This document shows, piece by piece, positions 19,120 through 34,851 of a stretch of 64,000 nucleotides of DNA. The notes under the pieces are model-generated. The model searched no databases, had not been told where the DNA came from, and saw only the letters and a list, made by a program, of their open reading frames with translations. The DNA is taken from NCBI GenBank assembly GCA_963422365.1, contig OY729426.1, positions 384,001 through 448,000 of the forward strand. The letters are read 5' to 3'. Numbering within the stretch: position 1 is the first letter of the stretch; every line of letters begins with the position of its first letter. The position numbers were made by a program, and so were the translations under genes. The stretch comes from Nitrospirales bacterium. Its GTDB lineage: Bacteria; Nitrospirota; Nitrospiria; Nitrospirales; UBA8639.

Positions 19120-20764
19120 TCAATCCAACCCCAACGCCTGTTGCCCTGTCTTGGGTGGAGCCTTCGGTAGGTTCTCCACCCGCAGGCGATAGTCGTCCTT
19201 GCCCCACTCGCAGCGGCTCAGCACGGCTTTCGGGATCTTCTTGAGCGTCAGATTGGGAAACGCATCGGACTTGACGCGAAAGGCTCCACAGCAAATGAGG
19301 AGCGACCGCTTTTCACCGACCTCTTCGCTGAGCCTGGCCAGTTGCTCACGGGTGAGCGTTTGCGTGGTCACGTACATGAAATCACATTCCGTGGAATGCC
19401 CATGCTGCCAGTACATGGTTTCGCTGGGGGCATACGTGAACCCCATCAGCTTGCACGTGGCTTCCGCAACCATGGCTGCGTTGTATTGCTTACTGATGAC
19501 GGGGTTGCCGAACTGATCCTGTTCAAGCAGCGACGGAGCGAGCCGGTAATACCGGAAACCACCGCCCCTTCCAGCCCACGGCCCCCGTGATGCCACCCTG
19601 GTCCTCCCCATCGATGACCTTTTTCAGCCGGGGAATAATGTGCGTGTGGCAATGCTCACCCAACTCGACCATGACCCACCGACGGCCCATCTTATGCGCC
19701 ACCGCACCCGTGGTGCCGGAACCCGCAAAGGAGTCGAGGACGAGATCACCGGGCTGTGATGATAACTCTAAGACTCGTTGAAGAAGGTGTTCGGATTTTG
19801 GTGTTGAAAAGATTTCGGTAGCATTGAAGGCCGTTACCTCACGCTTGGAATCTTGATTATCGCCTACTTCGTCTCTCAACCAAATCGTCTTTGTAACGTT
19901 CTTGTCCTGTACTTCTGACAAAAACAGCTTTGACGCAGGAACATTCTTGCCATACTTGCCAAACCAAATGCGATTGTCTGCTACTAACTGCTTATCCCTT
20001 TCTGGAGATGCTCCCCAACATCTTCCCCTTGCTGGTAAAAGCTTTCTGCCCGACGGCGTCTCAATCTCGAAAATATTCGAGGATTCACCGGTTCTCGCAA
20101 ACTGCGCCCCTCTTTGCCCGCCCGTCAAAACTTATTGTGAAGTCTGCAAATTTCCAAGGCCCTCTCGGATCATTGTCTGGATTTTTGTAACGCTTATCCA
20201 TTGCTTCGGTACGCGGAGGGGAAACAGGCGCCAGATTTCCTTGTTCCTGGCATAAAGGAGAACATGATCGTGACTGTCAGAGAGCCAGATAGCGTTGGGT
20301 TGGGGGGAGTATTTCTTTTGCCATATGACGTTGCACACGAAGTTCGCTCGACCAAACACTTCGTCACACAAGGCCTTCATGTAGTGAGCTTCATTGTCAT
20401 CCACCGTCATCCAAATTGAACCATCCTCTGAAAGAAGGCATCGTAATAGTTCGACGCGGTCCCGAATGAGAGACAACCACAATGAGTGTTCTATGCCATC
20501 ATCATCATGGCTGAAGGCTGATCCCGTATTGTACGGCGGATCAATAAAAATGCACTTGATCTTGCCAGCAAACTCCTGTTCCAACGCTTTGAGCGCCAGC
20601 AGATTGTCACCAAAGATGAGACGGTTATCGAACACGTCATGGTCGGTCACGAGGTGTGTCGCGTGGTAGGACTGCTCCGGATCTTCCAGCAGAATCCGCG
20701 GCTCCAGCCTTGGCCGGTGCTCCTTCCCAATCCAGGTCAACTCAAGTTTCTGCTTCCGATTCAT
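19120..20764 (-). pseudogene. mod: type III RM Mod (adenine methyltransferase), three frameshifts
   Basis: GDNLLALKAL, IDPPYNTG, DSFAGSGTT, GGGFRYY; shifts near 20216, 20130 and 19568. Confidence 0.9.
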
Positions 20765-20840
20765 GATTCAAGTCATTCTCAGCCAGTCTGCCCGCCATAG
20801 CCGTGGCGGAGGCACGTGCTCCTTCCCGATCCAAAACAGT

Positions 20841-21101
20841 TTAAATTGGTCTTGACGGGCATCTTGTTTCGTTTATTGCCGCTGTGTAGTGACGAACGTC
20901 CACTTGCACCCTAGCACGCGCAGCCTCTCCAGCGGTCTTGAGCAGGTCTGATGTCATTTCCTCATCCACGTACTTTTCTCCGCAATTCACGCAGACCTGC
21001 GCCGGCACCGACTTGATCACCAGAGTCGTGTCCTCACGTTCAAGAGCGACAGTCGCCTTCCCCAATCGAGTCTTCCCATTTTTACAAATCACGCAGGTCA
21101 T
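20841..21101 (-). CDS. YgiT-type zinc finger antitoxin (MqsA family)
   Basis: MTCVICK..VIKSVPAQVCVNCGEKY. Confidence 0.82.
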   Translation of the reverse strand: MTCVICKNGKTRLGKATVALEREDTTLVIKSVPAQVCVNCGEKYVDEEMTSDLLKTAGEAARARVQVDVRHYTAAINETRCPSRPI

Positions 21102-21307
21102 GCGTCCGTTCTCCTTTTCTTGAAGTCTTGTTCCCATTCCTCGCAACTAGGCTCGTCTGCCGTCATCACGATTGTTTCTCCGGACTCCGCATTCTCAGCA
21201 GCCACAACATGGAATGGCCACGCATGCCGCCATCCTCATAACAATCGGCTCGGGTATGGCTTGTCACCTGGATACGTTTCAATCGGCTCGCCGGTCTCCA
21301 GCACCTC
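21098..21307 (-). pseudogene. DUF4258 toxin, 5'-truncated with internal stop
   Basis: EVLETGEPIETYPGDKPYPSRLL*GW...HVVAA..W..DFKKRR; begins immediately after the vsr stop. Confidence 0.75.
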
Positions 21308-21757
21308 CTAGTGCTTTTCTTCAAGTTTACGTCGGATCCTCTGTATACACCGATCAGGATTTTTGTTTAGACGGCACTCCCAAATCCGTACAACCTTCCA
21401 GCCGAGTTTTCGGAGGACGCGATTAGTGCGCCGGTCCCTAGCCCGAGTCGTGTTTAGCTTATCTCGCCACGCCTTCACGTTCGTCTTTGGCGTGACGTTC
21501 TTGCCACAGTCGTGGCCGTGCCAAAAACATCCATCAACTAAGACGGCGACTTTCATCTTCGGCCACACAAAATCCGGACGACCGGGAAGTGGTTGGTGTC
21601 TACGCCAGCCGCTCAAGCCCGCTTCACGTAATAAAAACACAAGTCGCTTCTCCGTTGTTTGATTCCCAGTGCTACGTACACGCGACATAAGTTCACTTCG
21701 GCATAGTTCGCCAAACGTCGTGCGTTCTCGCTGGGCGTTGCCAGGCCACCAACTCAT
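21308..21757 (-). CDS. vsr: very short patch repair endonuclease
   Basis: [37 protein letters not shown] overlap with dcm. Confidence 0.93.
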
Positions 21758-22860
21758 CGCATTGCGCCAACTCTCCGGCAGACGTGGGCACTCAGCGCGG
21801 CCAAGACCTTCTTGGCGGCCTGCTTTGCATACAGTGGTGGAACCGCGTTGCCAATGAGGTTGCACACGGCGTCCATCTGGTCCGTGATGAAGCCATAATG
21901 CTCTGGAAACGTTTGAAGCAACGCCGCTTCACGGACGGAAATCGTGAGCCGCCGCTTGTCCGGGTGCCCAAACCGGCCTTTACTCGACGTCGTGCACCCG
22001 CCCGTAATCGTGGGGGCGACGTGATCCCACGCCATCCGGCCGTACACGTTCGTGAATCCCTGGTATCCGTTCCGATGACAGTGAGGGCGAAGGGACTCAT
22101 TGATCTTCAACCACGGTTGTCCTGGTTCCGCCGCTTGGAGGCGTTGCTTGATTTGTGGACTCAGATCTCGAGTTACGTGCCAGTTATACGACTGTGGGCT
22201 GCTCTCGCGAAGTGATTGTTTGAGCGTGATTGGTGCCTTCATGTGTCCGATGGCGTCCCTTACCGTATTCCATGGGTGTTGGTCAGCACCGCTTTTCGGT
22301 AATCGTGCATGAGTTGGTTCAGGAAGGGAAATGCTGAATCCGCGTCCGGCCAAAAGAACCAAACGCCGTCGGGACTGCGGCACGCCGAAGTTGGCCATTT
22401 GTTCGACGCGCCACTCGGAGTGGTATCCAAGACGAGAGAGGACATTGAGAAACGCATCGAAAATCGGCTTTCCACGATTCATGAGTCCAGGAACGTTTTC
22501 CATCATCACCGCCTTGGGGCGGATCCCTTCGATGAGGTGAGCCATCACGAGAAGCAGTTCGTTGCGCGGGTCGTCCCTTTTGTACTTCGCCGTCAGAGAA
22601 CAAAATCCCTGGCAGGGCGCGCAACCGGCCAAGAGAGAGATTCGCTTACTTTCAGCCGTCCGCAGGAGTTCGGTCGCGGATACGTCACGGATATCCTTTT
22701 CGAGCAACCGGGTTCGTCGATTGTTCCATCTATACGTCCGCGCCGAGACGGGATCGATTTCCACCGCCGCCGAGACGCGGAATCCCGCGTCTCGGAGTCC
22801 CTTGGTCAAACCACCACACCCGGCGAACAGGTCTATGGCAATGGGTTTCTTTTCGTTCAT
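21754..22860 (-). CDS. dcm: DNA (cytosine-5) methyltransferase
   Basis: Motif [49 protein letters not shown]. Confidence 0.95.
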
Positions 22861-22887
22861 TTCCTTAAGCATCTTCTTTTCAGCCCT

Positions 22888-24861
22888 TCAGTCTGACGCA
22901 CCCTTTCCGTTTTCTTGTGATAGTTGAACTATTCTCGGATCATCATGCGGAGCGCGCTTCGTAACGGCATCAAGAAATTCTTTGTGCATCGATTCGGTGG
23001 TTGCCAGAAGGTTTCTCCACGTTCGAACGTCGAATATTGCAGCGTCCTGCCCGACCTTTGCGTACCCTTCGTCGCCCGGCCGAATTCGGTCTGCGATTAG
23101 CAGACCCTTTACGGTAGATCTTCGGTGTTCGCTGTCCGTTGCTTCTTCCTGGAGTTTGCGACGGAGGAACAGAACATAATCTCGAATCTGATCACATTCC
23201 TTCTGACCCACAAGATCACCCGGACGCTTCGTCTCTATTACGTGAGCCGTCTGATAGCGATCTCCAAGACAGAAAAAGTCGAGACGTCGGGCACCTTCCT
23301 TACTTTTTGGTCCGGAAATCTCGAACTTCTCACAAATCATTCGATCTAACGACTGTTCATGCACCAAAACCGTCCATTTGGGATCAATTAACCATGGATG
23401 ATCCCGGAGGTATTTCTGCATATCTGGTTTTTCCGGGACTTTATCCTTGATCATTTGCGCGAACTTTTGGATGATCTCCACGCGTCCCTTGACGAGGTGT
23501 GCTGTATTTACGGCTTCAATGATATCCCACTCAGAAAGGACTTGATTGAAATGCGCAACGTCGTCCGAAGACGCAGTGTTTAATCTTCTTATCGCGTCGA
23601 GAAAACTTCGATTTGTCAGCGCGTTATAGACAAACTCAATGAGTTCATCTGTAATGTCTTTGCCATCCTTGTGCTTGTCGAGTTGAGGAATAGCGCAAAT
23701 GCGGTCAACGACCTGTTTGAAAATTCTACGTTCGTTTTCGGGCAACCTCTCCGCCTGTTTTATGTACAAGGTTACTTTGGGGCTCTTGGTCTTCGCTTCG
23801 CGCCTCTTGTCGGTCCACTTTTCCAGCAATTCTTTTATCTTCTTGCGCCCCCATTCTTTCAAATGTGCTGCGGTAGGGTCTTCCCATCGAACGGTTCCTC
23901 TGTCAGTGGCAATGAGGTCGATGTTTTCATCCAGGAAATCCGCTTGAATTTCACCCGTGAGATACTGCATCCCGTGCTGACCCCACACGCCACCGCTCAG
24001 ATCGAAAAACCAAGGCGTTTGAGCCAATTTGCCGCGCACGTAGACGACGAAGCCGCGTTGCTCTTCATCTGGAATCGTATTCTTGCAAAAGCCCGCCCAC
24101 CACTGAATCTGGTGACCATTTCCAAGATCAGCCGTCTCCCATTCGCTGATATTTTCTGGAAACCGAAACTGAAAAGGAATCTCTTGCCTTGATATAGACG
24201 TTCCGTTGACGTGGACCGTAAAGTTTTCATCAAGCACCAGTAATCTTCTGGCGATACTGCTTTTGAATGGCTGTTCGTCGATAACGCGACTGATTTTCAA
24301 CTGTGACAGCGTTACGGTTGTAGCAGGGTTCTCTTGCGTGCTCCTGCCGTCCTCGGGCAACAATTCAGGTGAGTATCCCTGCGCGTCAGTGAAGTCGGCG
24401 CTCTTAGTTAATTCGTCAAAATTCAATGCAAAGTGGGAAATTTCGTTGTCCTTGATCGTTCGTATGCTAATCAGGTTAGCGATGCCAAAGCCAGCAAGCT
24501 TGCCGATGCCTTTTCGTCCTTGTACCTTTCGATGACTCTGGCCCTTATAGGTCTTGGTCCATCCACTTTGACTTGAACGACGATCCCTGCCAACCGACAG
24601 ATAAAACGAATTGCATTCATCAAAACTCATTCCGCAGCCATCGTCCCTGACCACTATTTTATCGTCCTGCGCAATCGAGCGTCCCGTAGGAATCTCGATC
24701 CATACGTTCCTCGCCATCGCGTCGTAGGCGTTTGAGATAAGTTCGGAAATGGCGGGAACGGCTCCGGAATACATCTGCAACCCGAGATGCTTAAACAATT
24801 GTCCGGCAACGGTCATTTTGTACTGGCGTTCTTCAGGCGTCGTTGTTTGTTGACTTGTCAT
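22888..24861 (-). CDS. GHKL/MORC-type ATPase fused to a C-terminal PD-(D/E)xK nuclease
   Basis: ELISNAYDA, DDGCGM, GRKGIGK, TTVTL; C-terminal HPWL..RLDF..VIETKRP..DQIRDY. Confidence 0.85.
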   Translation of the reverse strand: MTSQQTTTPEERQYKMTVAGQLFKHLGLQMYSGAVPAISELISNAYDAMARNVWIEIPTGRSIAQDDKIVVRDDGCGMSFDECNSFYLSVGRDRRSSQSGWTKTYKGQSHRKVQGRKGIGKLAGFGIANLISIRTIKDNEISHFALNFDELTKSADFTDAQGYSPELLPEDGRSTQENPATTVTLSQLKISRVIDEQPFKSSIARRLLVLDENFTVHVNGTSISRQEIPFQFRFPENISEWETADLGNGHQIQWWAGFCKNTIPDEEQRGFVVYVRGKLAQTPWFFDLSGGVWGQHGMQYLTGEIQADFLDENIDLIATDRGTVRWEDPTAAHLKEWGRKKIKELLEKWTDKRREAKTKSPKVTLYIKQAERLPENERRIFKQVVDRICAIPQLDKHKDGKDITDELIEFVYNALTNRSFLDAIRRLNTASSDDVAHFNQVLSEWDIIEAVNTAHLVKGRVEIIQKFAQMIKDKVPEKPDMQKYLRDHPWLIDPKWTVLVHEQSLDRMICEKFEISGPKSKEGARRLDFFCLGDRYQTAHVIETKRPGDLVGQKECDQIRDYVLFLRRKLQEEATDSEHRRSTVKGLLIADRIRPGDEGYAKVGQDAAIFDVRTWRNLLATTESMHKEFLDAVTKRAPHDDPRIVQLSQENGKGASD

Positions 24862-25139
24862 TGGTGGATGACCTCCATAGAAGTGCCGGATTCTCGAAGT
24901 TTTCCGAAGATAATTTTTGGTGGGAGTTTGTTACACAAGGTGTAGGATTCGTGGATCACGAACAGCATACGATCAAACGACGCGTGGCTCAATCCTTTGA
25001 ACACCTCGGCTCATTTCGTCGGGCATTAACATCGCCTCAATTTCGAAATCTGTTGAAGACCCGGGTCCTCCGTGAGACACATTGCTTCAGTTTGCTCAAT
25101 TTCGATGATTCCCTGCTCTCACGAACCAACGACTGGCAC

Positions 25140-26429
25140 CTATTGACGAATCGAATCGTCCCCCTCGACCGTCGGCGCATCCAACGCCCGCAGTTCCAAT
25201 CCTTCAATTTCCTGCAATGTTTTCCCCGCAATGCCTTGCAGGTCACCGTACATGCCGACCGTGGCCTGCATGACGCGGTCGATTTGCTCGTCGCGCTTGG
25301 CCCATTGCTTCATGATGGCTTTTTTCTCTTTGTCAAGATCCTCTTTCATGGAGGAAAAGGCCTCCACAATGGCCTCGACGCGTTGGCGGAAACGTGAGCC
25401 AGTTAAATATTCGTACACCATCTCCATCTTGGTCTGCTGGCCCTCAGAAGCCTGACGGGCAGTTGCGATCTCGATCAGCGTATAGCGAAGCATCACGGCG
25501 ATGGGCAGGGCCGCTCTCGGATGTGTCACCCAGACGCCGTCGATGAAGTCGAACGTCTCCACGCTGTTTGGAAGCGCCTGGCTGACGATCACGGCCACTT
25601 CCGCCTTGGCTGCGCGCTGGTCATCGCGGAGCTTGGTCAGCCAGCCGTCGCTCCAGTTCTTGGTGCGTTTGGACTCCCACAAGATCGTACCACACGCCTG
25701 GCCCGGCGGACCCATGACAACATGCAACACATCCCCACCGTGCTCCCCTTTCCGGACGGGTTGGATCATATCAAGTGGGAACTTCCCCCCTAACAGCGCT
25801 TCGAGCTCAAGTTCCTGCACCTCACCTTGAAGTTGCTGTGAGCCTTGTTCCGCCTTGCGCTTGAGATCCTCGATTTGTTTCTGCATCGAGGCGATGGTCT
25901 GCTCCTTCTCCTTCACTTTGAGGTTGAGCGATTCTTCTGCCTCTTTCTTTGCCTGATCCCGCGTAGCGGCTAGGTCCGCCTGCACTCGTTTCTCAACGGT
26001 GAGGTCTAATTCACGCTTGGCATCGTCAAGCTCACGCTGTTTGCGAAGCAGGTCGGCTTGGGTTTGTTGCGCCTCGGCCAGTTTCTCGTCACGCCGTTTC
26101 AAAATATCCTGAAGGTCCGTGATTTCCTTTGCTTGTTGAGCAAGGTCAGTTTCCAGGACCAGTCTGGCTTTCTTCGCTTCTTCAATAGCGATTGTGGCAC
26201 GCGCTTTTTGCAACTTTTCCGCCACCTGGTCGTCTATCGTCTCTTGTGCCTTGGAGAGCGCTTCTTCGCGCTTGTGCAGTGCGCGTTCCCATGTGGCGAT
26301 ATCAGCGTCCTTCCGGGCCAGACGTTCTTCAAACTCACGCCGGGTGGACTCGATGAGCGGAGCCGCGAGCGATTCGGTGAGTTTGATCTCAGCCTGACAT
26401 GTTGGACACGTAATAGTTGGCTCTGTCAT
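25140..26429 (-). CDS. DUF2130 family coiled-coil protein
   Basis: ITCPTC..EIKLTESLA, long coiled coil, GSQQLQGEVQE, ILWESKRTKNWSDGW. Confidence 0.85.
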   Translation of the reverse strand: MTEPTITCPTCQAEIKLTESLAAPLIESTRREFEERLARKDADIATWERALHKREEALSKAQETIDDQVAEKLQKARATIAIEEAKKARLVLETDLAQQAKEITDLQDILKRRDEKLAEAQQTQADLLRKQRELDDAKRELDLTVEKRVQADLAATRDQAKKEAEESLNLKVKEKEQTIASMQKQIEDLKRKAEQGSQQLQGEVQELELEALLGGKFPLDMIQPVRKGEHGGDVLHVVMGPPGQACGTILWESKRTKNWSDGWLTKLRDDQRAAKAEVAVIVSQALPNSVETFDFIDGVWVTHPRAALPIAVMLRYTLIEIATARQASEGQQTKMEMVYEYLTGSRFRQRVEAIVEAFSSMKEDLDKEKKAIMKQWAKRDEQIDRVMQATVGMYGDLQGIAGKTLQEIEGLELRALDAPTVEGDDSIRQ

Positions 26430-26481
26430 AGGAACTCCAAGCAATTTCTTATTGACACGACTTTGATCTTATCTTGATCTG

Positions 26482-27699
26482 TCATGAGGTCTTGTTGACA
26501 CACCGAAACCCTGCATGCGCATAAGCATACTCTTGACGAAACCAATTTCGGAATGATCGACGCAACAAGCATGAAGCCGTCGTGGGAGATCCCCCTTTGA
26601 CAATGAAATGATCCTCGTCGAAGAATCGCGAGGAGTATCCGGGATAGGTGGGATAGGGCTCGAAGCCTTCAAAGGGATGGAACCGAGTCGAGGTCCATTC
26701 CCAGCCATTCCCGACTAATTGGGACACCCCGAAGGCACTGTCACCTTGCGGATTTGCCGTGACCGGGATCGGATCCCAAAACCGAAAATGGAAATTCCCG
26801 TGAACCCCATTGGCGATCTGGTTTCCCCAAGGATAGGCGCGTTCTTCACCGCTTGGCGTGCCGTACGCCGCCCGATGAAATTGCGCTTCAGTCGGCAGCG
26901 AGAGGTCGGCCCATTGCGCATAGGCCCGCGCTTCTCTCAGGGACACATAGACGGGCCAATGCAGAGGAAGCGGAATTTCTTCGAACATCGTCAACAAGAA
27001 CCAGCCATCTCCCCGTTTGACCCAAAACGGGGGGATGGGACCGCCCTCTTCAACAAACGTTACATATTGTTGATTGGTGATTTTATATTTGCTGATCGCA
27101 AAGGCCGGCACGTCTTCTTGCTGTTCGCCAAATTCATTATCCCACCCAAACCCGCCACGACGGCCAAGCGTCACCACGCCTTGGGGAACGTCGAGCATGA
27201 CGTGCCTAGGGGGCGAACCTTCAAGCCGTGGTGACAAAGGCAGCGAATTTTTCCCTTTGCGAGAAGTCTGATGCAGAAGGTAGGCTGTGGTTTCGGCGTG
27301 CATCCAACGATGCTCGATCGCCATGCGAAGGACGGTGTCGGGAGCTTGTTCCAGTACGTGATCAACGGACTCCCTCGCTCTGACGTTATAGCGCAGGATT
27401 TCTTCGAGCGAAGGCCATTCTGAGGGAGTATCCTCTTGTTCTGAGCCTACCGCTGGATCAATGCCTGCCTCGAACAGCGAATCAAATGTGTCGTGAAAAG
27501 AGGACTGCCCCAATGTCCAGCGACAAATTTGATTCCAATCAAAGGCTTCTACATGACCAACGTAAAAAATCACCCGATGGCGCTCCGGAATGGGTCGTTC
27601 ATAGAGCATCTTGGGTTTAAACAGGGTAAAGATACGGTCGGTGCAGGCACGCGCGGCGGATAATTCCTTTCGTATTTCGACGAAACGCGGCATAATCAT
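26482..27699 (-). CDS. EgtB/OvoA-like non-heme iron sulfoxide synthase (DinB + FGE domains)
   Basis: RHRVIFYVGH and EHRWMHAET iron-ligand motifs; FGE domain FGWDNE, LPTEAQ, GNGWEW, RRSFRNW, AGFRC. Confidence 0.88.
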   Translation of the reverse strand: MIMPRFVEIRKELSAARACTDRIFTLFKPKMLYERPIPERHRVIFYVGHVEAFDWNQICRWTLGQSSFHDTFDSLFEAGIDPAVGSEQEDTPSEWPSLEEILRYNVRARESVDHVLEQAPDTVLRMAIEHRWMHAETTAYLLHQTSRKGKNSLPLSPRLEGSPPRHVMLDVPQGVVTLGRRGGFGWDNEFGEQQEDVPAFAISKYKITNQQYVTFVEEGGPIPPFWVKRGDGWFLLTMFEEIPLPLHWPVYVSLREARAYAQWADLSLPTEAQFHRAAYGTPSGEERAYPWGNQIANGVHGNFHFRFWDPIPVTANPQGDSAFGVSQLVGNGWEWTSTRFHPFEGFEPYPTYPGYSSRFFDEDHFIVKGGSPTTASCLLRRSFRNWFRQEYAYAHAGFRCVNKTS

Positions 27700-27908
27700 T
27701 TCTTCAACCAAACACCTGACTTCTTATAATGAAACGGCATGCAACACGTCATCCCGTCATTCTAGGTTGCCGTCGATCACCTGGAATCGACGGGTCTTTT
27801 GTAATATATCCATAGTCGAGCTTGTCAAGAAAAAAAGCTGGATTGTTGAAAACCTGTCCTGCTTGACCTGATCGGATTCGAAGGGAGCAGAACAACGGAG
27901 AGCGCCTT

Positions 27909-28045
27909 CCCTTCGCGGCTCCCTTCGCTCTCGCTCAGAGCAGGCGCTTGGCTCAGGATGACAAAGATTCCGCTAGGCGGATGAGATCCGCCGCTACCCC
28001 CTGCACAAGACCCCAGTGTATCATCCTGAGCAACGCAGTCGAGGG
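27909..28045. repeat. inverted REP-like pair with central hairpin
   Basis: GCTCAGGATGA (27951-61) / TCATCCTGAGC (28021-31) perfect inverse; CCCTTCG twice in the left arm; GGCGGAT-GAG-ATCCGCC (27976-92). Confidence 0.6.
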
Positions 28046-28099
28046 TAGAAGGCGGGGGCAGCCCACTATCGAGAAATTTTTGAAGTATTCAACGGCCCT

Positions 28100-28855
28100 A
28101 TGATGAACCCACCTGTCCTCAGTGTCCACGAGGTGAACAAGGAGTTCGGCTCTGACGTTCGAGTCCTTGAGCACGTCGATCTCGACGTGCTTCAAGGTGA
28201 AACCCTGGTCCTGATCGGGGAAAGTGGATCAGGTAAAACGACCCTGCTCCGCATGTTTAATGGATTGACTTATCCGAGTTCGGGAGAAGTCCGCATTCAT
28301 GGAGAATCGATACGAGCCAAAGACCCCATAGCGCTCCGTCGCCACATTGGGTATGTGCAGCAGGATGCCGGATTGCTGCCGCATTGGACCGTCGAAGACA
28401 ACATAGGCCTTGTGCCGTTATTGCTCGGATGGGAGCCGAAACGAAGAACAAGCCGAGTGCACGTTCTCCTGGATCTCATTCATCTTGACCCGCATCAGTT
28501 TCGAACGCGTTATCCCATTGAACTGTCCGGTGGACAACGACAACGTGTAGCCTTTGCCAGAGCCCTCGCGGCCGATCCCGAGATCGTCTTGCTCGATGAA
28601 CCCTTTGGCGCCCTCGACGCGATTACTCGTCACGAACTCCAACATCAATTCCTCGGCCTGAAGCACCACCTCAAAAAAACCATGGTCATGGTCACCCATG
28701 ACATTGATGAGGCGTTGCATCTCGGTGATCGCATCGCGGTGTTGAAGGAGGGGCACCTCTTGCAGATCGGCACCCCGACAGAACTTCTCAACACCCCGGG
28801 CCACGACTACATTGTGCAATTGCTTCACCATCGATCCCCTGGAGATCATACGTGA
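28100..28855 (+). CDS. osmoprotectant/betaine-type ABC transporter ATPase (OpuA/EgtV-like)
   Basis: GESGSGKT, LRRHIGYVQQ, LSGGQRQR, LLDEPFGALD. Confidence 0.92.
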   Translation: MMNPPVLSVHEVNKEFGSDVRVLEHVDLDVLQGETLVLIGESGSGKTTLLRMFNGLTYPSSGEVRIHGESIRAKDPIALRRHIGYVQQDAGLLPHWTVEDNIGLVPLLLGWEPKRRTSRVHVLLDLIHLDPHQFRTRYPIELSGGQRQRVAFARALAADPEIVLLDEPFGALDAITRHELQHQFLGLKHHLKKTMVMVTHDIDEALHLGDRIAVLKEGHLLQIGTPTELLNTPGHDYIVQLLHHRSPGDHT

Positions 28856-30423
28856 CCAGGTCTATCCGATCGATTCGTTTTCTGAGCATGCTGGGGCTGG
28901 TCTTCTCCATGCTGATTCCCTTGACCACACCGGCCTTTTCCCGGGAAGGCCGCATTGTCGTTGGCTCAAAAAATTTCATGGAGAACAAACTTCTGGCCGA
29001 AATATTCGCTCAACTCATTGAAGCCCGCACGAATTTAGCCGTAGAACGGCGATTGGGGTTGGCAGGTACGCAGGTCTGTTTTGAAGCCCTTCACACTGGA
29101 GCCATAGACCTCTACCCCGAATACACGGGCACCGGGCTCGTCAGCATTCTTCAGCATACGCCGACTGGAGATTCCCGAACGGCACTCAATACCGTTCGTT
29201 CAGAATTCTTAAAACGTTGGGATTTGTGGTGGCTGAATCCATTGGGGTTTGACAATTCCTATGCGCTCGCGGTTCCTCGCGCTCGAACGGCCGACGTTCC
29301 TCTGCAAACCATTTCAGATCTTGCCAGGATTTCGCCTTCCCTGACGGCAGGGTTCGGGTATGAATTTATCAACCGGCCTGATGGATTACCCGGTCTTGAA
29401 ACCCGGTATGGTCTCACCTTTCAACGTGTGCAGGCCATGCAACAATCTCTCAAATACCAGGCTGCCGCTGCCGGCGAGATTGACGTGCTTGACGTGTATA
29501 CCACCGATGGACGTCTTGCCGTGCACGACTTCGTGGTGCTCGAAGATGATCGACAATTTTTCCCGCCCTATGAAGCTTCCGGACTCATTCGAGGCGCCAC
29601 GCTTGAGCAGCACCCTGAATTGGGATCGATCCTGGGGTTGCTGGCCAACGCATTTGATGCCAAGACGATGCGGCAATTGAATTATCGTTTACAAGAAGAC
29701 GGAGAGCCGCTAGAGGTGGTGGCACGCGATGCCTTGTCGGCCCTCCACCTTTTTGTCACCGATGATGCCGGCCCCGGACCAATTCCTCATCAAGAAGGGC
29801 TCTTCGCCTATGTGTGGGCGAAGCGAACCACGCTGATGAATCGAACCCTCGAACATCTGACCCTGGCTGGTCTGGCTTTAGGGTTGGGGATCCTTGTGGC
29901 CGTCCCATTGGGATTGCTGCTCGAACGTCACCATGCGGTTGCCGAACCCATCATCCGAGGCATTGGACTCACGCAAACGGTCCCTTCTATCGCGTTACTC
30001 GCCTTTATGATCCCAGTGTTCGGGATCGGCAGGCTGCCGGCCGTGATCGCCTTATGGATGTATTCCCTGTTTCCGATTGTCAGAAATACCTATTCAGGCC
30101 TCCGCGATGCCGCACCTCAGGCCGTGGAAGCGGCTCGTGCGCTCGGCATGACGGAACGGCAAAGACTCTATTGGGTGCGACTGCCATTAGCTGCACCCGT
30201 CATCATGGCAGGCGTCCGAACGGCCGGCGTCATCACCGTCGGCACGACCACGCTTGCCGCGTTTATCGGAGCGGGGGGCTTAGGCGTGCCGATTGTCGCG
30301 GGGTTACAAATGGCCAACACCACCGTGATCCTTTCCGGGGCATTGCCTGCAGCGGCCCTGGCGTTAGTGATCGACGGGTTTCTCGGCAAGGTGGAAGCAT
30401 GGGTCAGACCGCGTGGTGTATAA
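28852..30423 (+). CDS. fused betaine-type substrate-binding protein + permease
   Basis: VGSKNF.E, YPEYTGT, DNSYAL, YTTDG, FFPPY, then permease QTVPSIAL, EAARALGM, IGAGGLG. Confidence 0.9.
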   Translation: MTRSIRSIRFLSMLGLVFSMLIPLTTPAFSREGRIVVGSKNFMENKLLAEIFAQLIEARTNLAVERRLGLAGTQVCFEALHTGAIDLYPEYTGTGLVSILQHTPTGDSRTALNTVRSEFLKRWDLWWLNPLGFDNSYALAVPRARTADVPLQTISDLARISPSLTAGFGYEFINRPDGLPGLETRYGLTFQRVQAMQQSLKYQAAAAGEIDVLDVYTTDGRLAVHDFVVLEDDRQFFPPYEASGLIRGATLEQHPELGSILGLLANAFDAKTMRQLNYRLQEDGEPLEVVARDALSALHLFVTDDAGPGPIPHQEGLFAYVWAKRTTLMNRTLEHLTLAGLALGLGILVAVPLGLLLERHHAVAEPIIRGIGLTQTVPSIALLAFMIPVFGIGRLPAVIALWMYSLFPIVRNTYSGLRDAAPQAVEAARALGMTERQRLYWVRLPLAAPVIMAGVRTAGVITVGTTTLAAFIGAGGLGVPIVAGLQMANTTVILSGALPAAALALVIDGFLGKVEAWVRPRGV

Positions 30424-30533
30424 CTCTGAGTCTTGCACAAATGGAGGCAACCCGTTAGAGTGCGGACTCTACGAATTCGCTCCTCCCAATTCCATCACCC
30501 ATCACATTATCATAGCCGCACAGATTCGATTGC

Positions 30534-31517
30534 ATGCTTGATCAATTCAATATTATTATCGACGTGCACCTGAGCAACCAAGATCCCCGTGCCGTCAAGG
30601 AAGAGATTCGCGTGGGACTGCTTTCGAATCCACCGACGATTCCTGCCAAATATTTTTATGATGAACGAGGATCTGAGCTTTTTGAACAAATCTGCGAATT
30701 GCCGGAATACTACCAGGCACGCACGGAACACGCATTGCTGAAAACCATGGCCGATGACGTTGTGACCCAAACAGGTGCTGAAGAATTAGTGGAATTAGGC
30801 TCTGGAGCCGCGACCAAAACTCGAGTCGTGTTGGACGCCATGGCTCGGGCGAAACAACTCCGCTTCTATGTCCCGTTCGACGTCAGCGAAGGCATTGTGC
30901 GACGAGTGGCCCAAGAGCTTGTTGAGGAATACAAAGAATTACAGGTTCATGGCGTCGTAGGAGATTTCCTGGCCCATTTAGAACACATTCCGCAGGGCGG
31001 CAGACGCCTGGTCATGCTTTTGGGCGGGACCATCGGCAACTTGGGACCTGAAGCCGCTCAGACATTTCTGTCGTCGGTCTTTTATGAAATGGATCAAGGA
31101 GATTTTTTTCTTCTGGGGGTGCAACTCATCACTGACGTGAACCGCTTGGAAGCGGCGTATAATGATTCCGCCGGGCTCACCGCCGCCTTCAACAAGAATA
31201 TATTGCACGCGTTACAGTCGGTGATTAGAGCCGAATTCGACCCTGACGCCTTTGACCACGTAGCCCGATTTAATCAATCCGAGCACCGGATTGAAATGCG
31301 CCTTCGATCGGTACGAGAGCAAGTGATTCCTATTCCCGAATTGGAATTAACCCTTTGCCTCAAAGAAGGGGAAGGAATCCTCACGGAAATCAGTACGAAA
31401 TATATGCGTCCCCACGTGGAAGCACTGTTAGTCCGTGCAGGATTCAGCCCCGTTGCCTGGTATACCGACCCTGACCACCTTCACGGTCTCGCCTTAGCCC
31501 AAAAGCCTTCCGGCTGA
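30534..31517 (+). CDS. egtD: L-histidine N-alpha-methyltransferase
   Basis: PAKYFYDERGSELFEQICELPEYY, ELGSG, GGTIGNL, AYNDSAG, TEISTKY. Confidence 0.95.
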   Translation: MLDQFNIIIDVHLSNQDPRAVKEEIRVGLLSNPPTIPAKYFYDERGSELFEQICELPEYYQARTEHALLKTMADDVVTQTGAEELVELGSGAATKTRVVLDAMARAKQLRFYVPFDVSEGIVRRVAQELVEEYKELQVHGVVGDFLAHLEHIPQGGRRLVMLLGGTIGNLGPEAAQTFLSSVFYEMDQGDFFLLGVQLITDVNRLEAAYNDSAGLTAAFNKNILHALQSVIRAEFDPDAFDHVARFNQSEHRIEMRLRSVREQVIPIPELELTLCLKEGEGILTEISTKYMRPHVEALLVRAGFSPVAWYTDPDHLHGLALAQKPSG

Positions 31518-31624
31518 GGTATTCCTGTGAATGTGTCCCTGTTCTCCTTTCCCCTTTTTGTCTTCTGCTTTGCTAGAGTCCCTGAAAGATCTTTTCCACC
31601 TCAATCCTTCATTATGGGCCGAGC

Positions 31625-32710
31625 ATGATCTATCTCAACTACGCCGCCCTGTGCCCAACCAATCCGGACACCGACAGGGAAGTTCACCGTACACTTGCAG
31701 AATTCAAACGGTATTTGTATTCCGATGCCGGCATTGAGTGGTACCTTGACAAGGTTCATGATTGTCGGCAAAAAGTCGGCACCCTGTTACATGTGGATGA
31801 TCCTTCGACCATCGCGTTTACCACGAATGCCTCCACCGCACACTACCTCACGCTTTCTTCTTTGAAATGGGAACGGGGCGATACCATTCTCACCACCACG
31901 CACGAAAACCCTTCCATTACGAGACAGCTTTGTGCGCTTGAACGCAATGGAGTCCACATTCATGCCGTCGGACCGGCCTCCCCAGAAACGTTTCTGAATG
32001 TGCTGCAAGAACAGTTCGACGAGCCCGGCGTCAAAGCCATCGTGCTGAGCCATGTGTCGCACGTTGACGGGCGTGTCTTCCCGGTCAGTGAAGTGGCCTC
32101 ATTGGCCAGAGCAAGACAGTGCTTGGTTATCATCGACGGGGCTCAAGCCGTTGGCCACATCCCGGTTGATCTGAATGCGCTCGATTTCGACAGCTATTTT
32201 TTTACCGGACACAAGTGGTGTGAAGGCCCGCTCGGTACGGGAGCAATGGTGGTGCGTGAAGGACTATTTACGCATCCTCGCTACCACGCGATTGAAGGAA
32301 AACACCAAGGTCGGTGTCCAGCATTCCAATTTGAAATCGGGACGCACAACATCGGGCTCATTGGGGGGCTCGCCAAAGCCTGCGAACAACAGCCGCGGAG
32401 AAGCAAAGCCGAACCACAGCCGACCTTTCGAGAAACGGCAAAGGAACTGCTGGGCGGGCCTCCACATTGTCATTTCATGGAATGGCAGGGCCCTCATGCC
32501 CCCGGCATCCTCACGTTGCAAGGAGCGGATGACCTGGATCATGGGCTCTTTGCCAAACGGCTTGCATCCGAATTGGGGATTATCGTGAAACCCTTTCTAG
32601 ACTATCCGGAAGGTGACGCGCCTGCGATTCGGCTGTCAGGGCCTTCGACGATGAATCAACAGGATTTTCAGAAAGGCGTTTCAAAGATTGCGCAACGACT
32701 CGGGGGCTAA
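31625..32710 (+). CDS. class V PLP-dependent enzyme, probable C-S lyase (EgtE/Egt2-like)
   Basis: YLNYAA, HENPS, DGAQAVGH, TGHKW; no SufS/IscS catalytic-Cys motif seen; follows egtD. Confidence 0.75.
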   Translation: MIYLNYAALCPTNPDTDREVHRTLAEFKRYLYSDAGIEWYLDKVHDCRQKVGTLLHVDDPSTIAFTTNASTAHYLTLSSLKWERGDTILTTTHENPSITRQLCALERNGVHIHAVGPASPETFLNVLQEQFDEPGVKAIVLSHVSHVDGRVFPVSEVASLARARQCLVIIDGAQAVGHIPVDLNALDFDSYFFTGHKWCEGPLGTGAMVVREGLFTHPRYHAIEGKHQGRCPAFQFEIGTHNIGLIGGLAKACEQQPRRSKAEPQPTFRETAKELLGGPPHCHFMEWQGPHAPGILTLQGADDLDHGLFAKRLASELGIIVKPFLDYPEGDAPAIRLSGPSTMNQQDFQKGVSKIAQRLGG

Positions 32711-33808: not shown

Positions 33809-34720
33809 TTACCCCAGCCCATACCGGCTCAGTCGATCCTCTACAACATGATCCCGGAGCAAGGAGTCAAGCTGAAGATCATATCCCTCTGCTTGGACAA
33901 AGGCCTCCCGAGGAATTAACCCCACCAACTCGCTGCGCGCCACGGCCACACCTCGAAGAGCGGCCTCTCGTTTCACCGCGTCAAAAGCTACGTGAATGGG
34001 CGTGTGGCGATAGTTCGTCAAATTCATCGACACCTGCACGGATCCTTGACTTGTCAGTTCCAGCCCGATGGCCTTGACGGCAGGGAGGCCTCCATTCGCG
34101 GCGCGAAGGGTGTGAGCAATCGTCTGCGCGAGAGACAACTCTCGACTCTGCAACATCACATTGAAGGCAATCAGCGGGAAGCGCGCACCCACGGCAAGCA
34201 CGCCTGTGGTCGGGTGTAGTTGGCCGGGACCGAAATCCGGGACCCACGCCGGATCCGTCTGCATGCGTTTCATCAAAGCCTCCAGCCCACCTTTCCGAAT
34301 CTGTTCTAATCGCTTTCGAAAGGGTCGATTACAGGCTTCCTCATAGAGAAAAACCGGTATCCGAAGGTCCTGTCCAATGCGAGCACCGACCTGCCGAGCG
34401 AGTTGGACGCATTGGTCCATGGTCGAGCCTGACAGCGGAATAAATGGCAAGACATCACACACCCCGAGACGAGGGTGCTGGCCCACGTGATTCTTCAGGT
34501 TGATCAATGCCGAAGCCTTGGCCACCACCGAAAAAGCGGCTTCTTCCACCGCCTCAAAAGACCCGGCAACGGTCAGGACGCATCGGTGGTGGTCCATGTC
34601 CTGGTGCTGGTCAAGCAGGGAAACCCCTTGAACCGAGGCAAGCGCGTTCTTGAGTTTCTCGATCACCCCCGGATTACGCCCTTCACTAAAATTGGGAACA
34701 CTCTCGACTATGCCAGTCAT
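33809..34720 (-). CDS. ftcD: glutamate formimidoyltransferase
   Basis: ESVPNFSEGR, HPRLGVCDVLPF, GARFPLIAFN, QVSMNL, SELVGL. Confidence 0.93.
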   Translation of the reverse strand: MTGIVESVPNFSEGRNPGVIEKLKNALASVQGVSLLDQHQDMDHHRCVLTVAGSFEAVEEAAFSVVAKASALINLKNHVGQHPRLGVCDVLPFIPLSGSTMDQCVQLARQVGARIGQDLRIPVFLYEEACNRPFRKRLEQIRKGGLEALMKRMQTDPAWVPDFGPGQLHPTTGVLAVGARFPLIAFNVMLQSRELSLAQTIAHTLRAANGGLPAVKAIGLELTSQGSVQVSMNLTNYRHTPIHVAFDAVKREAALRGVAVARSELVGLIPREAFVQAEGYDLQLDSLLRDHVVEDRLSRYGLG

Positions 34721-34747
34721 AGCCCTGTTTACTGAAATCGTGCTTTG

Positions 34748-34777
34748 TTGACAACCCCCAAAAGGGGATATTATAGT
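34748..34777 (+). promoter_or_regulatory. sigma70 promoter with C-tract/G-tract inverted repeat in the spacer
   Basis: TTGACA-ACCCCCAAAAGGGGATAT-TATAGT upstream of dsrE/tusA. Confidence 0.6.
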
Positions 34778-34851
34778 CAAAACTACTGACAGTTTTTCAT
34801 GTTCACAAGCATCAAGCTCTAACCCTCTAGCCGCTCAGAACAGGTGATCCT

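Follow-up and report, generated by a model that had tools for sequence, protein, structure and literature searches.

Sulfoxide synthases are sorted by a 17-position composite motif, in which the rule for type IV EgtB (EgtB-IV) reads RxYH--DxHxHYxNWFx (PMC11030361). A cysteine-direct pathway to ergothioneine is already known from fungi and from EgtB types II and IV, and Egt1 of N. crassa (type III EgtB, of the Egt1/Egt2 pair) uses hercynine and cysteine (PMC13547098). The pairing of synthesis genes with an importer is also known, being tabulated in PMC13674229 (its Table 1), in which 13.6% of these synthases have an OpuBA-type ATPase as a neighbour and 5.4% an OpuBB/AfProX-like gene. Here we analyze a five-gene locus at positions 26482..32710 of a 64,000-nucleotide stretch of a Nitrospirales genome (contig OY729426.1), called the window below, that combines a sulfoxide synthase, EgtD, a pyridoxal 5'-phosphate (PLP) enzyme and an ATP-binding cassette (ABC) importer.

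The five open reading frames (ORFs) are present as an earlier note on this DNA had described them, and ORF and family searches confirmed an EgtB/OvoA-like synthase on the minus strand divergent from an ABC ATPase, a fusion of substrate-binding protein (SBP) and permease, egtD, and the PLP enzyme gene on the plus strand (Table 1). As read from their sequences, the five genes probably encode a cysteine-direct ergothioneine pathway together with a salvage importer. Hercynine would arise from histidine through trimethylation by EgtD. The iron enzyme would then use O2 to attach cysteine at C2 of hercynine, ergothioneine would be freed when the PLP enzyme cleaves the resulting sulfoxide, and the cargo of the ABC system would be a carboxylated betaine linked to the pathway. 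The analysis establishes gene identities, motifs, conservation, the lack of gamma-glutamylcysteine families, and the exclusion of the synthase from the OvoA/EgtB-IV clade; we infer each reaction, the product, and the cargo. The short three-enzyme, cysteine-dependent route that the earlier note proposed is supported by the synthase residues, by an EgtD that scores above its model cut-off, and by the genome's lack of gamma-glutamylcysteine families.

Table 1. Features of the locus, in window coordinates
Feature	Position	Strand	Basis
Non-haem Fe sulfoxide synthase	26482..27711	-	Pfam DinB_2 and FGE-sulfatase; motif, trees
Conserved intergenic element, putative synthase promoter	27799..27831	-	Conserved columns in intergenic alignment
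ABC ATPase, ProV/OpuBA type, 251 aa	28100..28855	+	Pfam; TIGR01186 265 bits, below cut-off 326.6
OpuAC binding domain and BPD_transp_1 permease fusion	28852..30423	+	Pfam; binding domain N-terminal
EgtD, histidine N-alpha-trimethylase	30534..31517	+	TIGR03438 above cut-off; M. smegmatis EgtD 283 bits
Fold-type I class V PLP enzyme, predicted C-S lyase (C-DES/EgtE/Egt2-like)	31625..32710	+	Pfam, NCBIfam, structure relatives

The window's genome (G000) is a single 2.50-Mb contig that is 98.58% complete, and it carries the full-length synthase, the SBP, and EgtD in single copy each. Family searches of the whole genome gave no match to GCS2 or Glu_cys_ligase and one match to GATase_4 (the EgtC family) below cut-off, so no EgtA/EgtC route was found genome-wide. 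This extends to the genome the first observation that egtA and egtC are missing from the window. GSH-S_ATP and BshC also had no family match in G000; mycothiol genes lay outside the search. The window stretch was found whole in one contig of one sequencing run, which may be its source, and in a run from another study five pieces at 99% identity or more span it, which argues that the layout is not an assembly artefact. A 1,156-residue ORF elsewhere in G000 matches NxrA (7b04) at 1550 bits, and the closest named relatives are labelled Nitrospirales. Both support the proposal that the host is a nitrite oxidiser.

Predicted chemistry of the sulfoxide synthase

The composite motif of the synthase is RHYH--DVHMHYYNWFY, in which position 8 is variable and its mapping approximate. 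It follows the EgtB-IV rule, as do 144 of 150 aligned proteins; of the six exceptions, two are NWY variants and four are rows that are truncated or misaligned. The predicted iron triad is H53/H134/H138 and the catalytic tyrosine Y356, and the RHxxIFYxGH signature that was first noticed reads RHRVIFYVGH at residues 44 to 53. Within it, R44 and Y50 correspond to the cysteine contacts R62 and Y68 of OvoA (PMC10696552). Y359, N389, and W390 make up the published hercynine/C2 residue set, whose transplantation switched OvsA to hercynine and C2 (PMC11030361). The gamma-Glu-binding Asp/Arg pair of the EgtB-I motif NWDR is absent from its alignment position in the synthase. The true start is probably an ATG 4 to 6 codons downstream of the ORF start (the ORF has 409 codons, while homologues mostly have 402 to 405 residues). 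A homologue in Ca. Nitronereus thalassa (P0017) is 73% identical, and the closest solved structures by sequence are EgtB-IV (8vig/8vih) and OvoA (8khq). An AlphaFold model (predicted local distance difference test score, 84.4) aligned equally to EgtB-I 4x8b and to EgtB-IV 8vih-8vil (Z of 38 to 39, root mean square deviation of 2.5 to 2.6, 389 residues).

Because the motif and Y359/N389/W390 match the hercynine/C2 set, regiochemistry can be read from the sequence and points to C2, contrary to the earlier note, which held C2 and C5 to be indistinguishable. The product is thus likely to be ordinary ergothioneine. The non-standard N-methylated thiohistidine considered in that note is unlikely given this motif, and OvoA too yields the C2 product with hercynine (PMC10696552).

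Two points weigh against this assignment. The synthase fell under every NCBIfam cut-off tried (ovoA, 239 bits against 400; SenA, 178 against 420; EgtB, 173 against 360), and OvoA-branch enzymes with EgtB-like contacts, TgiA-II and AshA, can use free histidine (PMC13674229). According to the same source, AshA, TgiA, and TgiA-II make the C2 sulfoxide on histidine and are paired with ATP-grasp enzymes, and TgiA-II has LWF. An enzyme that takes free histidine as substrate or places the sulfur at C5, so that 2-thiohistidine, 5-thiohistidine, or an ovothiol-like compound methylated at N-alpha results, would account for the OvoA-type N-terminal motif and for ovoA_Nterm as the best-scoring NCBIfam model, and AshA and TgiA are exceptions to the motif rules (PMC13674229). 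We consider it very unlikely: the hercynine/C2 residues and the C2 outcome of OvoA with hercynine argue against it, OvoA rows have YAF and TgiA-II-like rows LWF at the positions in question, EgtD is adjacent in 70 of the best 80 GTDB loci described below, and the locus has neither an ATP-grasp nor an OvoA-type methyltransferase domain. Selenoneine as the product is scarcely credible. The SenA score, a tRNA-Sec call in G000, and a Met where SenA has Met would fit it, but there is no senB or senC at the locus, the best selD match in G000 lies below cut-off, the SenA motif xNEH--HRH is not that of the synthase, and selenoneine synthesis needs no C-S lyase (PMC11030361).

Two further known systems resemble the locus in part. 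OvoA and TgiA-II/AshA share the RxYH...D cysteine-binding set and the catalytic tyrosine with the synthase, which differs from them in having NWF and not YAF/LWF, no C-terminal N-pi-methyltransferase, and no ATP-grasp partner; as OvoA proper, it fails on NWF versus ...YF(Y/F)AF, on its TIGR04344 score (239 of 400 bits), and on a length of 409 residues that leaves no C-terminal methyltransferase. The mycobacterial EgtABCDE system (EgtB-I) is similar in its EgtD orthologue, synthase fold (Z of 39.2), and YY...NW hercynine residues. It is unlike the window locus in that G000 lacks the EgtA and EgtC families, the synthase lacks the gamma-Glu-binding D/R and shows a motif other than xSDH--RRHQHYYNWDR, and the PLP enzyme is not an EgtE equivalog.

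Phylogenetic placement and conservation

Trees were built from hand-picked rows (102 with FastTree, 46 with IQ-TREE under LG+G4, and 36 under LG+C20) taken from the 128 domains that were full length among 216 proteins, plus GTDB loci and plasmid OvoA/EgtB records. EgtB-IV is represented in them by sequence stand-ins (P0424 and relatives), not by a characterised cyanobacterial EgtB-IV, and one LWF stand-in was omitted from the IQ-TREE sets. P0424 scored 633 bits to 8vih and 531 to 8vig, compared with 179 to 184 bits for the window synthase. OvoA, EgtB-IV, and LWF rows formed one long branch in all trees (100/100) with the window synthase outside it, and forcing the synthase among the EgtB-IV stand-ins was rejected by the approximately unbiased (AU) test (p = 6.36e-64). 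Membership in the EgtB-IV clade is thereby ruled out, despite the agreement with its motif rule. Grouping with fungal Egt1 received 97/94 under LG+G4 and 74/44 under LG+C20, and the alternative was rejected at p = 0.046 only. In the phylogeny that the earlier note had suggested, placement outside the OvoA/EgtB-IV clade therefore stood, while sisterhood to Egt1 varied with the model.

The broader claim, that the synthase is closer to OvoA and fungal Egt1 than to mycobacterial EgtB, was borne out. A search for longer homologues found EgtD fusions, many named fungal Egt1 proteins among them. The motif of EgtD-fused fungal Egt1, RHYH--DxHMHYYNW(Y/F)Y in 18 fungal rows, is nearly identical to that of the window synthase, and EgtB-IV, TgiA-II-like, and OvoA rows carry HIH and a final F where the window synthase has HMH and a final Y. 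Raw identity was uninformative on placement (fungi, 30 to 35%; EgtB-IV stand-ins, 26 to 35%; OvoA, 30 to 32%; outgroup, 25 to 37%). An extra residue after NWF was dropped as a sign of kinship, being common to the fungi but also to the outgroup. Neither the 31 PDB sequence matches nor the 50 fold rows listed included a chain described as fungal Egt1.

Fungal Egt1 resembles the window synthase in its composite motif and in the predicted use of cysteine and hercynine at C2 without EgtA or EgtC. The window enzyme differs in being stand-alone, bacterial, about 404 residues long, not fused to EgtD, and just 30 to 35% identical, and in the trees the fungal rows lie nearer to other, unnamed EgtD fusions. 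Cyanobacterial EgtB-IV (8vig/8vih) shares the motif rule, an egtD neighbour, and the predicted reaction and gives the top PDB sequence matches, but the window synthase has HMH instead of HIH, a final Y instead of F, and about 20 fewer FGE-domain residues. By sequence, the synthase belongs to a broad, uncharacterised bacterial grade around Egt1, outside the EgtB-IV clade, and is predicted to act like EgtB-IV and Egt1.

EgtB-IV branches first inside the OvoA clade at just 91/69. EgtB-I, this grade, the fungi, and EgtB-IV all carry NW, so hercynine/C2 is possibly the ancestral state of the family. A wider and more doubtful proposal is that this branch (Nitrospirales, Acidobacteriota, and others) represents the bacterial stock of fungal Egt1, keeping the ancestral cysteine and hercynine/C2 chemistry of the OvoA-like half; EgtB-IV would then reflect retention, not convergence, and ovothiol synthesis would be derived. 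On this proposal the ProX-type ABC system would take up hercynine or ergothioneine as a second importer independent of EgtU, and these nitrite oxidisers would have ergothioneine as their main dedicated low-molecular-weight thiol. The synthase, phylogenetically separate from EgtB-IV, is nevertheless assigned to that type by the published motif rule, a mismatch that is relevant to the claim of a convergent origin of EgtB-IV from OvoA. A single-domain bacterial enzyme of 404 residues with a fungal Egt1 active site is also a simpler object for structural work and for cysteine-direct ergothioneine production.

Some proteins in the set are fusions of another kind. P0129-P0132, P0135, and P0139 join a class I/II aminotransferase to a sulfoxide synthase, mostly with EgtD as well, and some are labelled as non-fungal eukaryotes; each may be a one-protein pathway. 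In P0122 the sulfoxide synthase is fused to a flavin adenine dinucleotide (FAD) disulfide oxidoreductase of the PRK06370 type, possibly as a reductase that recycles thiohistidine, possibly as an artefact of read-through.

Conservation was assessed in 150 genomes of the order from four families, f1 (62 genomes, the family of G000), f2 (62), f3 (21), and f4 (5). Matches in f1, f2, f3, and f4 numbered 61, 7, 18, and 0 for the synthase; 61, 8, 18, and 5 for the SBP; 62, 7, 17, and 5 for EgtD; and 57, 4, 0, and 0 for the PLP enzyme (E of 1e-40); these counts come from kin genomes that are not independent, and no statistic is attached to them. Coordinates read by hand place the synthase, SBP, and EgtD genes no more than 10 kb apart in 53 of the 62 f1 genomes, and in the other nine they are split by 16 to 40 kb or by contig breaks or lack matches. 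All 33 same-genus genomes have the identical order of synthase, SBP, EgtD, and PLP gene within 10 kb. In f2, synthase and EgtD occur in the same seven genomes, with the SBP within about 5 kb in every one. The 40 regions fetched from the relatives display several gene orders.

A GTDB scan covered 12 of 64 parts, and the best 80 of 587 loci were kept, mostly from Nitrospirota and Acidobacteriota; its estimate of ~3500 stretches is not specific to this synthase branch. Among those 80, EgtD was found in 70, the ATPase in 51, the permease in 46, the binding domain in 40, and the PLP enzyme in 8; the 52 of them with at least 14 kb gave 51, 35, 34, 29, and 7, respectively. The gene cluster is real and conserved; the neighbourhood conservation asked about for Nitrospirota is supported in Nitrospirales, and synthase, SBP, and EgtD recur in Acidobacteriota. 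Outside f1 the permease precedes the binding domain and EgtD shares just 33 to 39% identity with that of the window, so the f1 locus is likely a mosaic.

Our literature search found no account of ergothioneine genes in Nitrospirales or of a bacterial Egt1-like branch, which subscription papers or the table of OvoA-like subfamilies in Fig. S12 of PMC13674229 may already cover; the available parts of PMC10903977, PMC8433421, PMC13348415, PMC13547098, PMC4020840, PMC13645936, PMC5915273, and PMC6282198 hold nothing on that branch. The near-fixed presence of this branch in a single nitrite-oxidiser family was likewise missing from the papers searched, and we regard the enzyme as an under-described variant in a known pathway. 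This near-universal retention, together with the lack of glutathione and bacillithiol families in G000, suggests that ergothioneine would serve as a redox buffer.

The fetched regions also show transporters of other kinds. In many f1 genomes (L055-L059, L061-L062, L064, L066, and L069-L070; e.g., L057:3188-6372) an energy-coupling factor (ECF)-type transporter lies 3' of the synthase on the same strand. In this transporter a QueT-like S domain and two ATPase domains form one protein of about 800 aa, accompanied by CbiQ and in some cases by a 5'-nucleotidase; the window lacks such a system at that place. In the Acidobacteriota loci L101, L113, L115, L124, L129, L130, and L144, an ATPase and permease follow egtD with no binding-domain match at E of 1e-8; the domain is divergent or missing.

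EgtD, the PLP enzyme, and the importer

EgtD scored 328.2 bits to TIGR03438 (cut-off, 290.9). Its residues F50, Y59, T166, N169, Y209, N220, M255, E285, and S287 match the alignment to M. smegmatis EgtD, by whose numbering we take them to be histidine-pocket positions, and they are kept in f1. A second EgtD-family methyltransferase (332 aa, about 30% identical to that of the window) occurs at L167-L179 (e.g., L172:4800-6972), divergent from a 353-residue haem-oxygenase-like iron enzyme (PF14518). The pair is present in 13 of 13 fetched loci (five f4 and eight f1 genomes) and is missing from G000; it may be a two-enzyme route to a modified betaine.

The nearest solved relative of the PLP enzyme is C-DES (E of 5.7e-24). 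The enzyme has no cysteine in the C-terminal loop, the position of the persulfide cysteine in desulfurases. D171, Q174, K197, and R336 are invariant in 19 of 19 aligned homologues. EgtE has a PLP-binding Asp/Gln/Lys set and a C-terminal substrate Arg (PMC10805701), with which R336 is equated by position alone. Three findings speak against a C-S lyase dedicated to this pathway: the enzyme scored 60.4 bits to the EgtE model TIGR04343 (cut-off, 400), f1 enzymes carry Asn at the ring-stacking His of C-DES, and no match (E of 1e-40) was found in 5 of the 62 f1 genomes or in any of the 21 f3 genomes. An unrelated cysteine/cystine desulfhydrase or aminotransferase, with a borrowed lyase taking the last step, would agree with the low EgtE score and with the occurrence of the gene in just 8 of the best 80 GTDB loci, all labelled Nitrospirota; the final step can also be carried out by unrelated lyases or by free PLP (PMC4020840). 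That is unlikely, since 60 of the 61 relatives with a match carry the synthase (the exception is G120) and the gene lies directly beside the synthase in four f2 genomes, in a different gene order. The PLP enzyme is likely a separately recruited C-S lyase that many relatives lack.

The ABC ATPase has no CBS domain detectable with Pfam, and the start of the SBP-permease ORF overlaps the ATPase stop by 4 bases. The fusion protein has an N-terminal signal, an OpuAC domain at residues 34 to 296, and a permease at about 332 to 519. The five top solved relatives of the SBP are OpuBC-derived sensors, followed by EgtUC, OpuCC, and ProX. EgtU is distinguished by G244, F293, and Y337 where AfProX has F, Y, and F, and G244F makes binding about 100-fold weaker (bioRxiv 2022.05.02.490363). 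The window SBP is of the AfProX type at all three positions (F42, Y91, and F133, the first two mapped by ungapped offset to 7txk and the third by motif), and F, Y, F was found where covered in all 36 loci with an SBP match among the 40 fetched.

The system resembles EgtU/EgtUV and AfProX/OpuF in having a Cluster F-III binding domain fused to a permease, a short ATPase, the carboxylate clamp (K40, T94, and R175), and the aromatic cage. It differs from EgtU in the F/Y/F residues, in N at I243 and Q at P401, and in its position beside biosynthesis genes. Its binding domain is N-terminal, the reverse of EgtUBC, whose permease is N-terminal and binding domain C-terminal (bioRxiv 2025.07.28.667264). 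An EgtU of the S. pneumoniae type is ruled out by the three residues and the reversed domain order. Ergothioneine, one of the two cargoes that the earlier note named, thus finds no backing in a pneumococcal EgtU signature, which the SBP lacks.

The AfProX-type pocket with K40, T94, and R175 predicts a carboxylated betaine as ligand. On balance we favour a histidine betaine, with hercynine as the first choice and ergothioneine, intact or oxidised, as the next. A role in salvaging a compound of the pathway is supported by linkage across two phyla, by the lack of a CBS domain, by a BCCT carrier that G000 has separately for osmolyte betaines, and by the absence of histidase and ergothionase family matches from that genome, and hercynine ranks first because its import saves three S-adenosylmethionine per molecule. 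The f4 genomes, in which EgtD and a related SBP occur without the synthase, fit hercynine as cargo, but the genes are non-adjacent in most of them. Several findings count against a pathway-specific cargo: F42/Y91/F133 are substitutions that lower ergothioneine affinity in SpEgtU (bioRxiv 2022.05.02.490363), a nearly identical SBP pocket occurs in an f2 genome without synthase or EgtD (G089, L036), and a related pocket occurs in the five f4 genomes without synthase. These findings, with the OpuBC-derived sensors at the head of the solved relatives, leave a lesser but serious possibility that the pathway makes ergothioneine while the ABC system, a generic importer of glycine betaine and proline betaine as osmolytes, just travels with the cluster. 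Against this, the linkage persists through several gene orders, both domain orders, and two phyla, seven of the eight f2 genomes with the SBP carry the synthase, and neither the missing CBS domain nor the BCCT carrier suits an osmolyte role. The binding protein gives a handle on what producers import through the ProX-type ABC systems that neighbour 5 to 14% of such synthases. In the five f4 genomes (L041-L045 and L051), EgtD-family genes, in three cases including a copy 63 to 65% identical to the window's type, occur with a fused ProX-type SBP and permease but with no full synthase match; hercynine might be the end product there, or sulfur might enter by another route.

The intergenic element and neighbouring genes

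One intergenic element is likely the synthase promoter. It was delimited by alignment columns that at least 80% of 41 intergenic regions share, with 30 of the 42 input loci coming from one genus, and it contains a perfect TTGACA at 27828-27823 facing the synthase, with an AT-rich block 14 to 17 nt downstream. A sigma-70 scan was at chance level (4 versus 4.7), the locus scan gave no Rfam family, and we noticed no conserved regulator gene beside the locus in the fetched regions. No RNA run was listed as containing the stretch, and a run presumed to be RNA, which gave 8 short contigs, was left out of account. Co-regulation of synthesis with uptake, as the earlier note had proposed, was not borne out, since the sole conserved intergenic element faces the synthase.

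Adjoining the synthase, a restriction-modification-like island (window 19523-26444, minus strand) is not kept at the relatives' loci. By names that we assign from motifs, it presumably holds an adenine methylase split over 19523-20128 and 20132-20764 and Vsr-like, cytosine methylase-like, and ATPase-nuclease-like genes, and Pfam places a DUF2130 gene inside it. Directly after the PLP gene lies a prokaryotic voltage-gated ion channel-like gene (PF00520; 32834-33646, minus strand), which is near the locus in four other regions. A glutamate formimidoyltransferase gene (33809-34780, minus strand; TIGR02024 above cut-off) is near the locus in eight fetched regions including the window, although G000 shows no histidase family match; a role in folate repair is possible.

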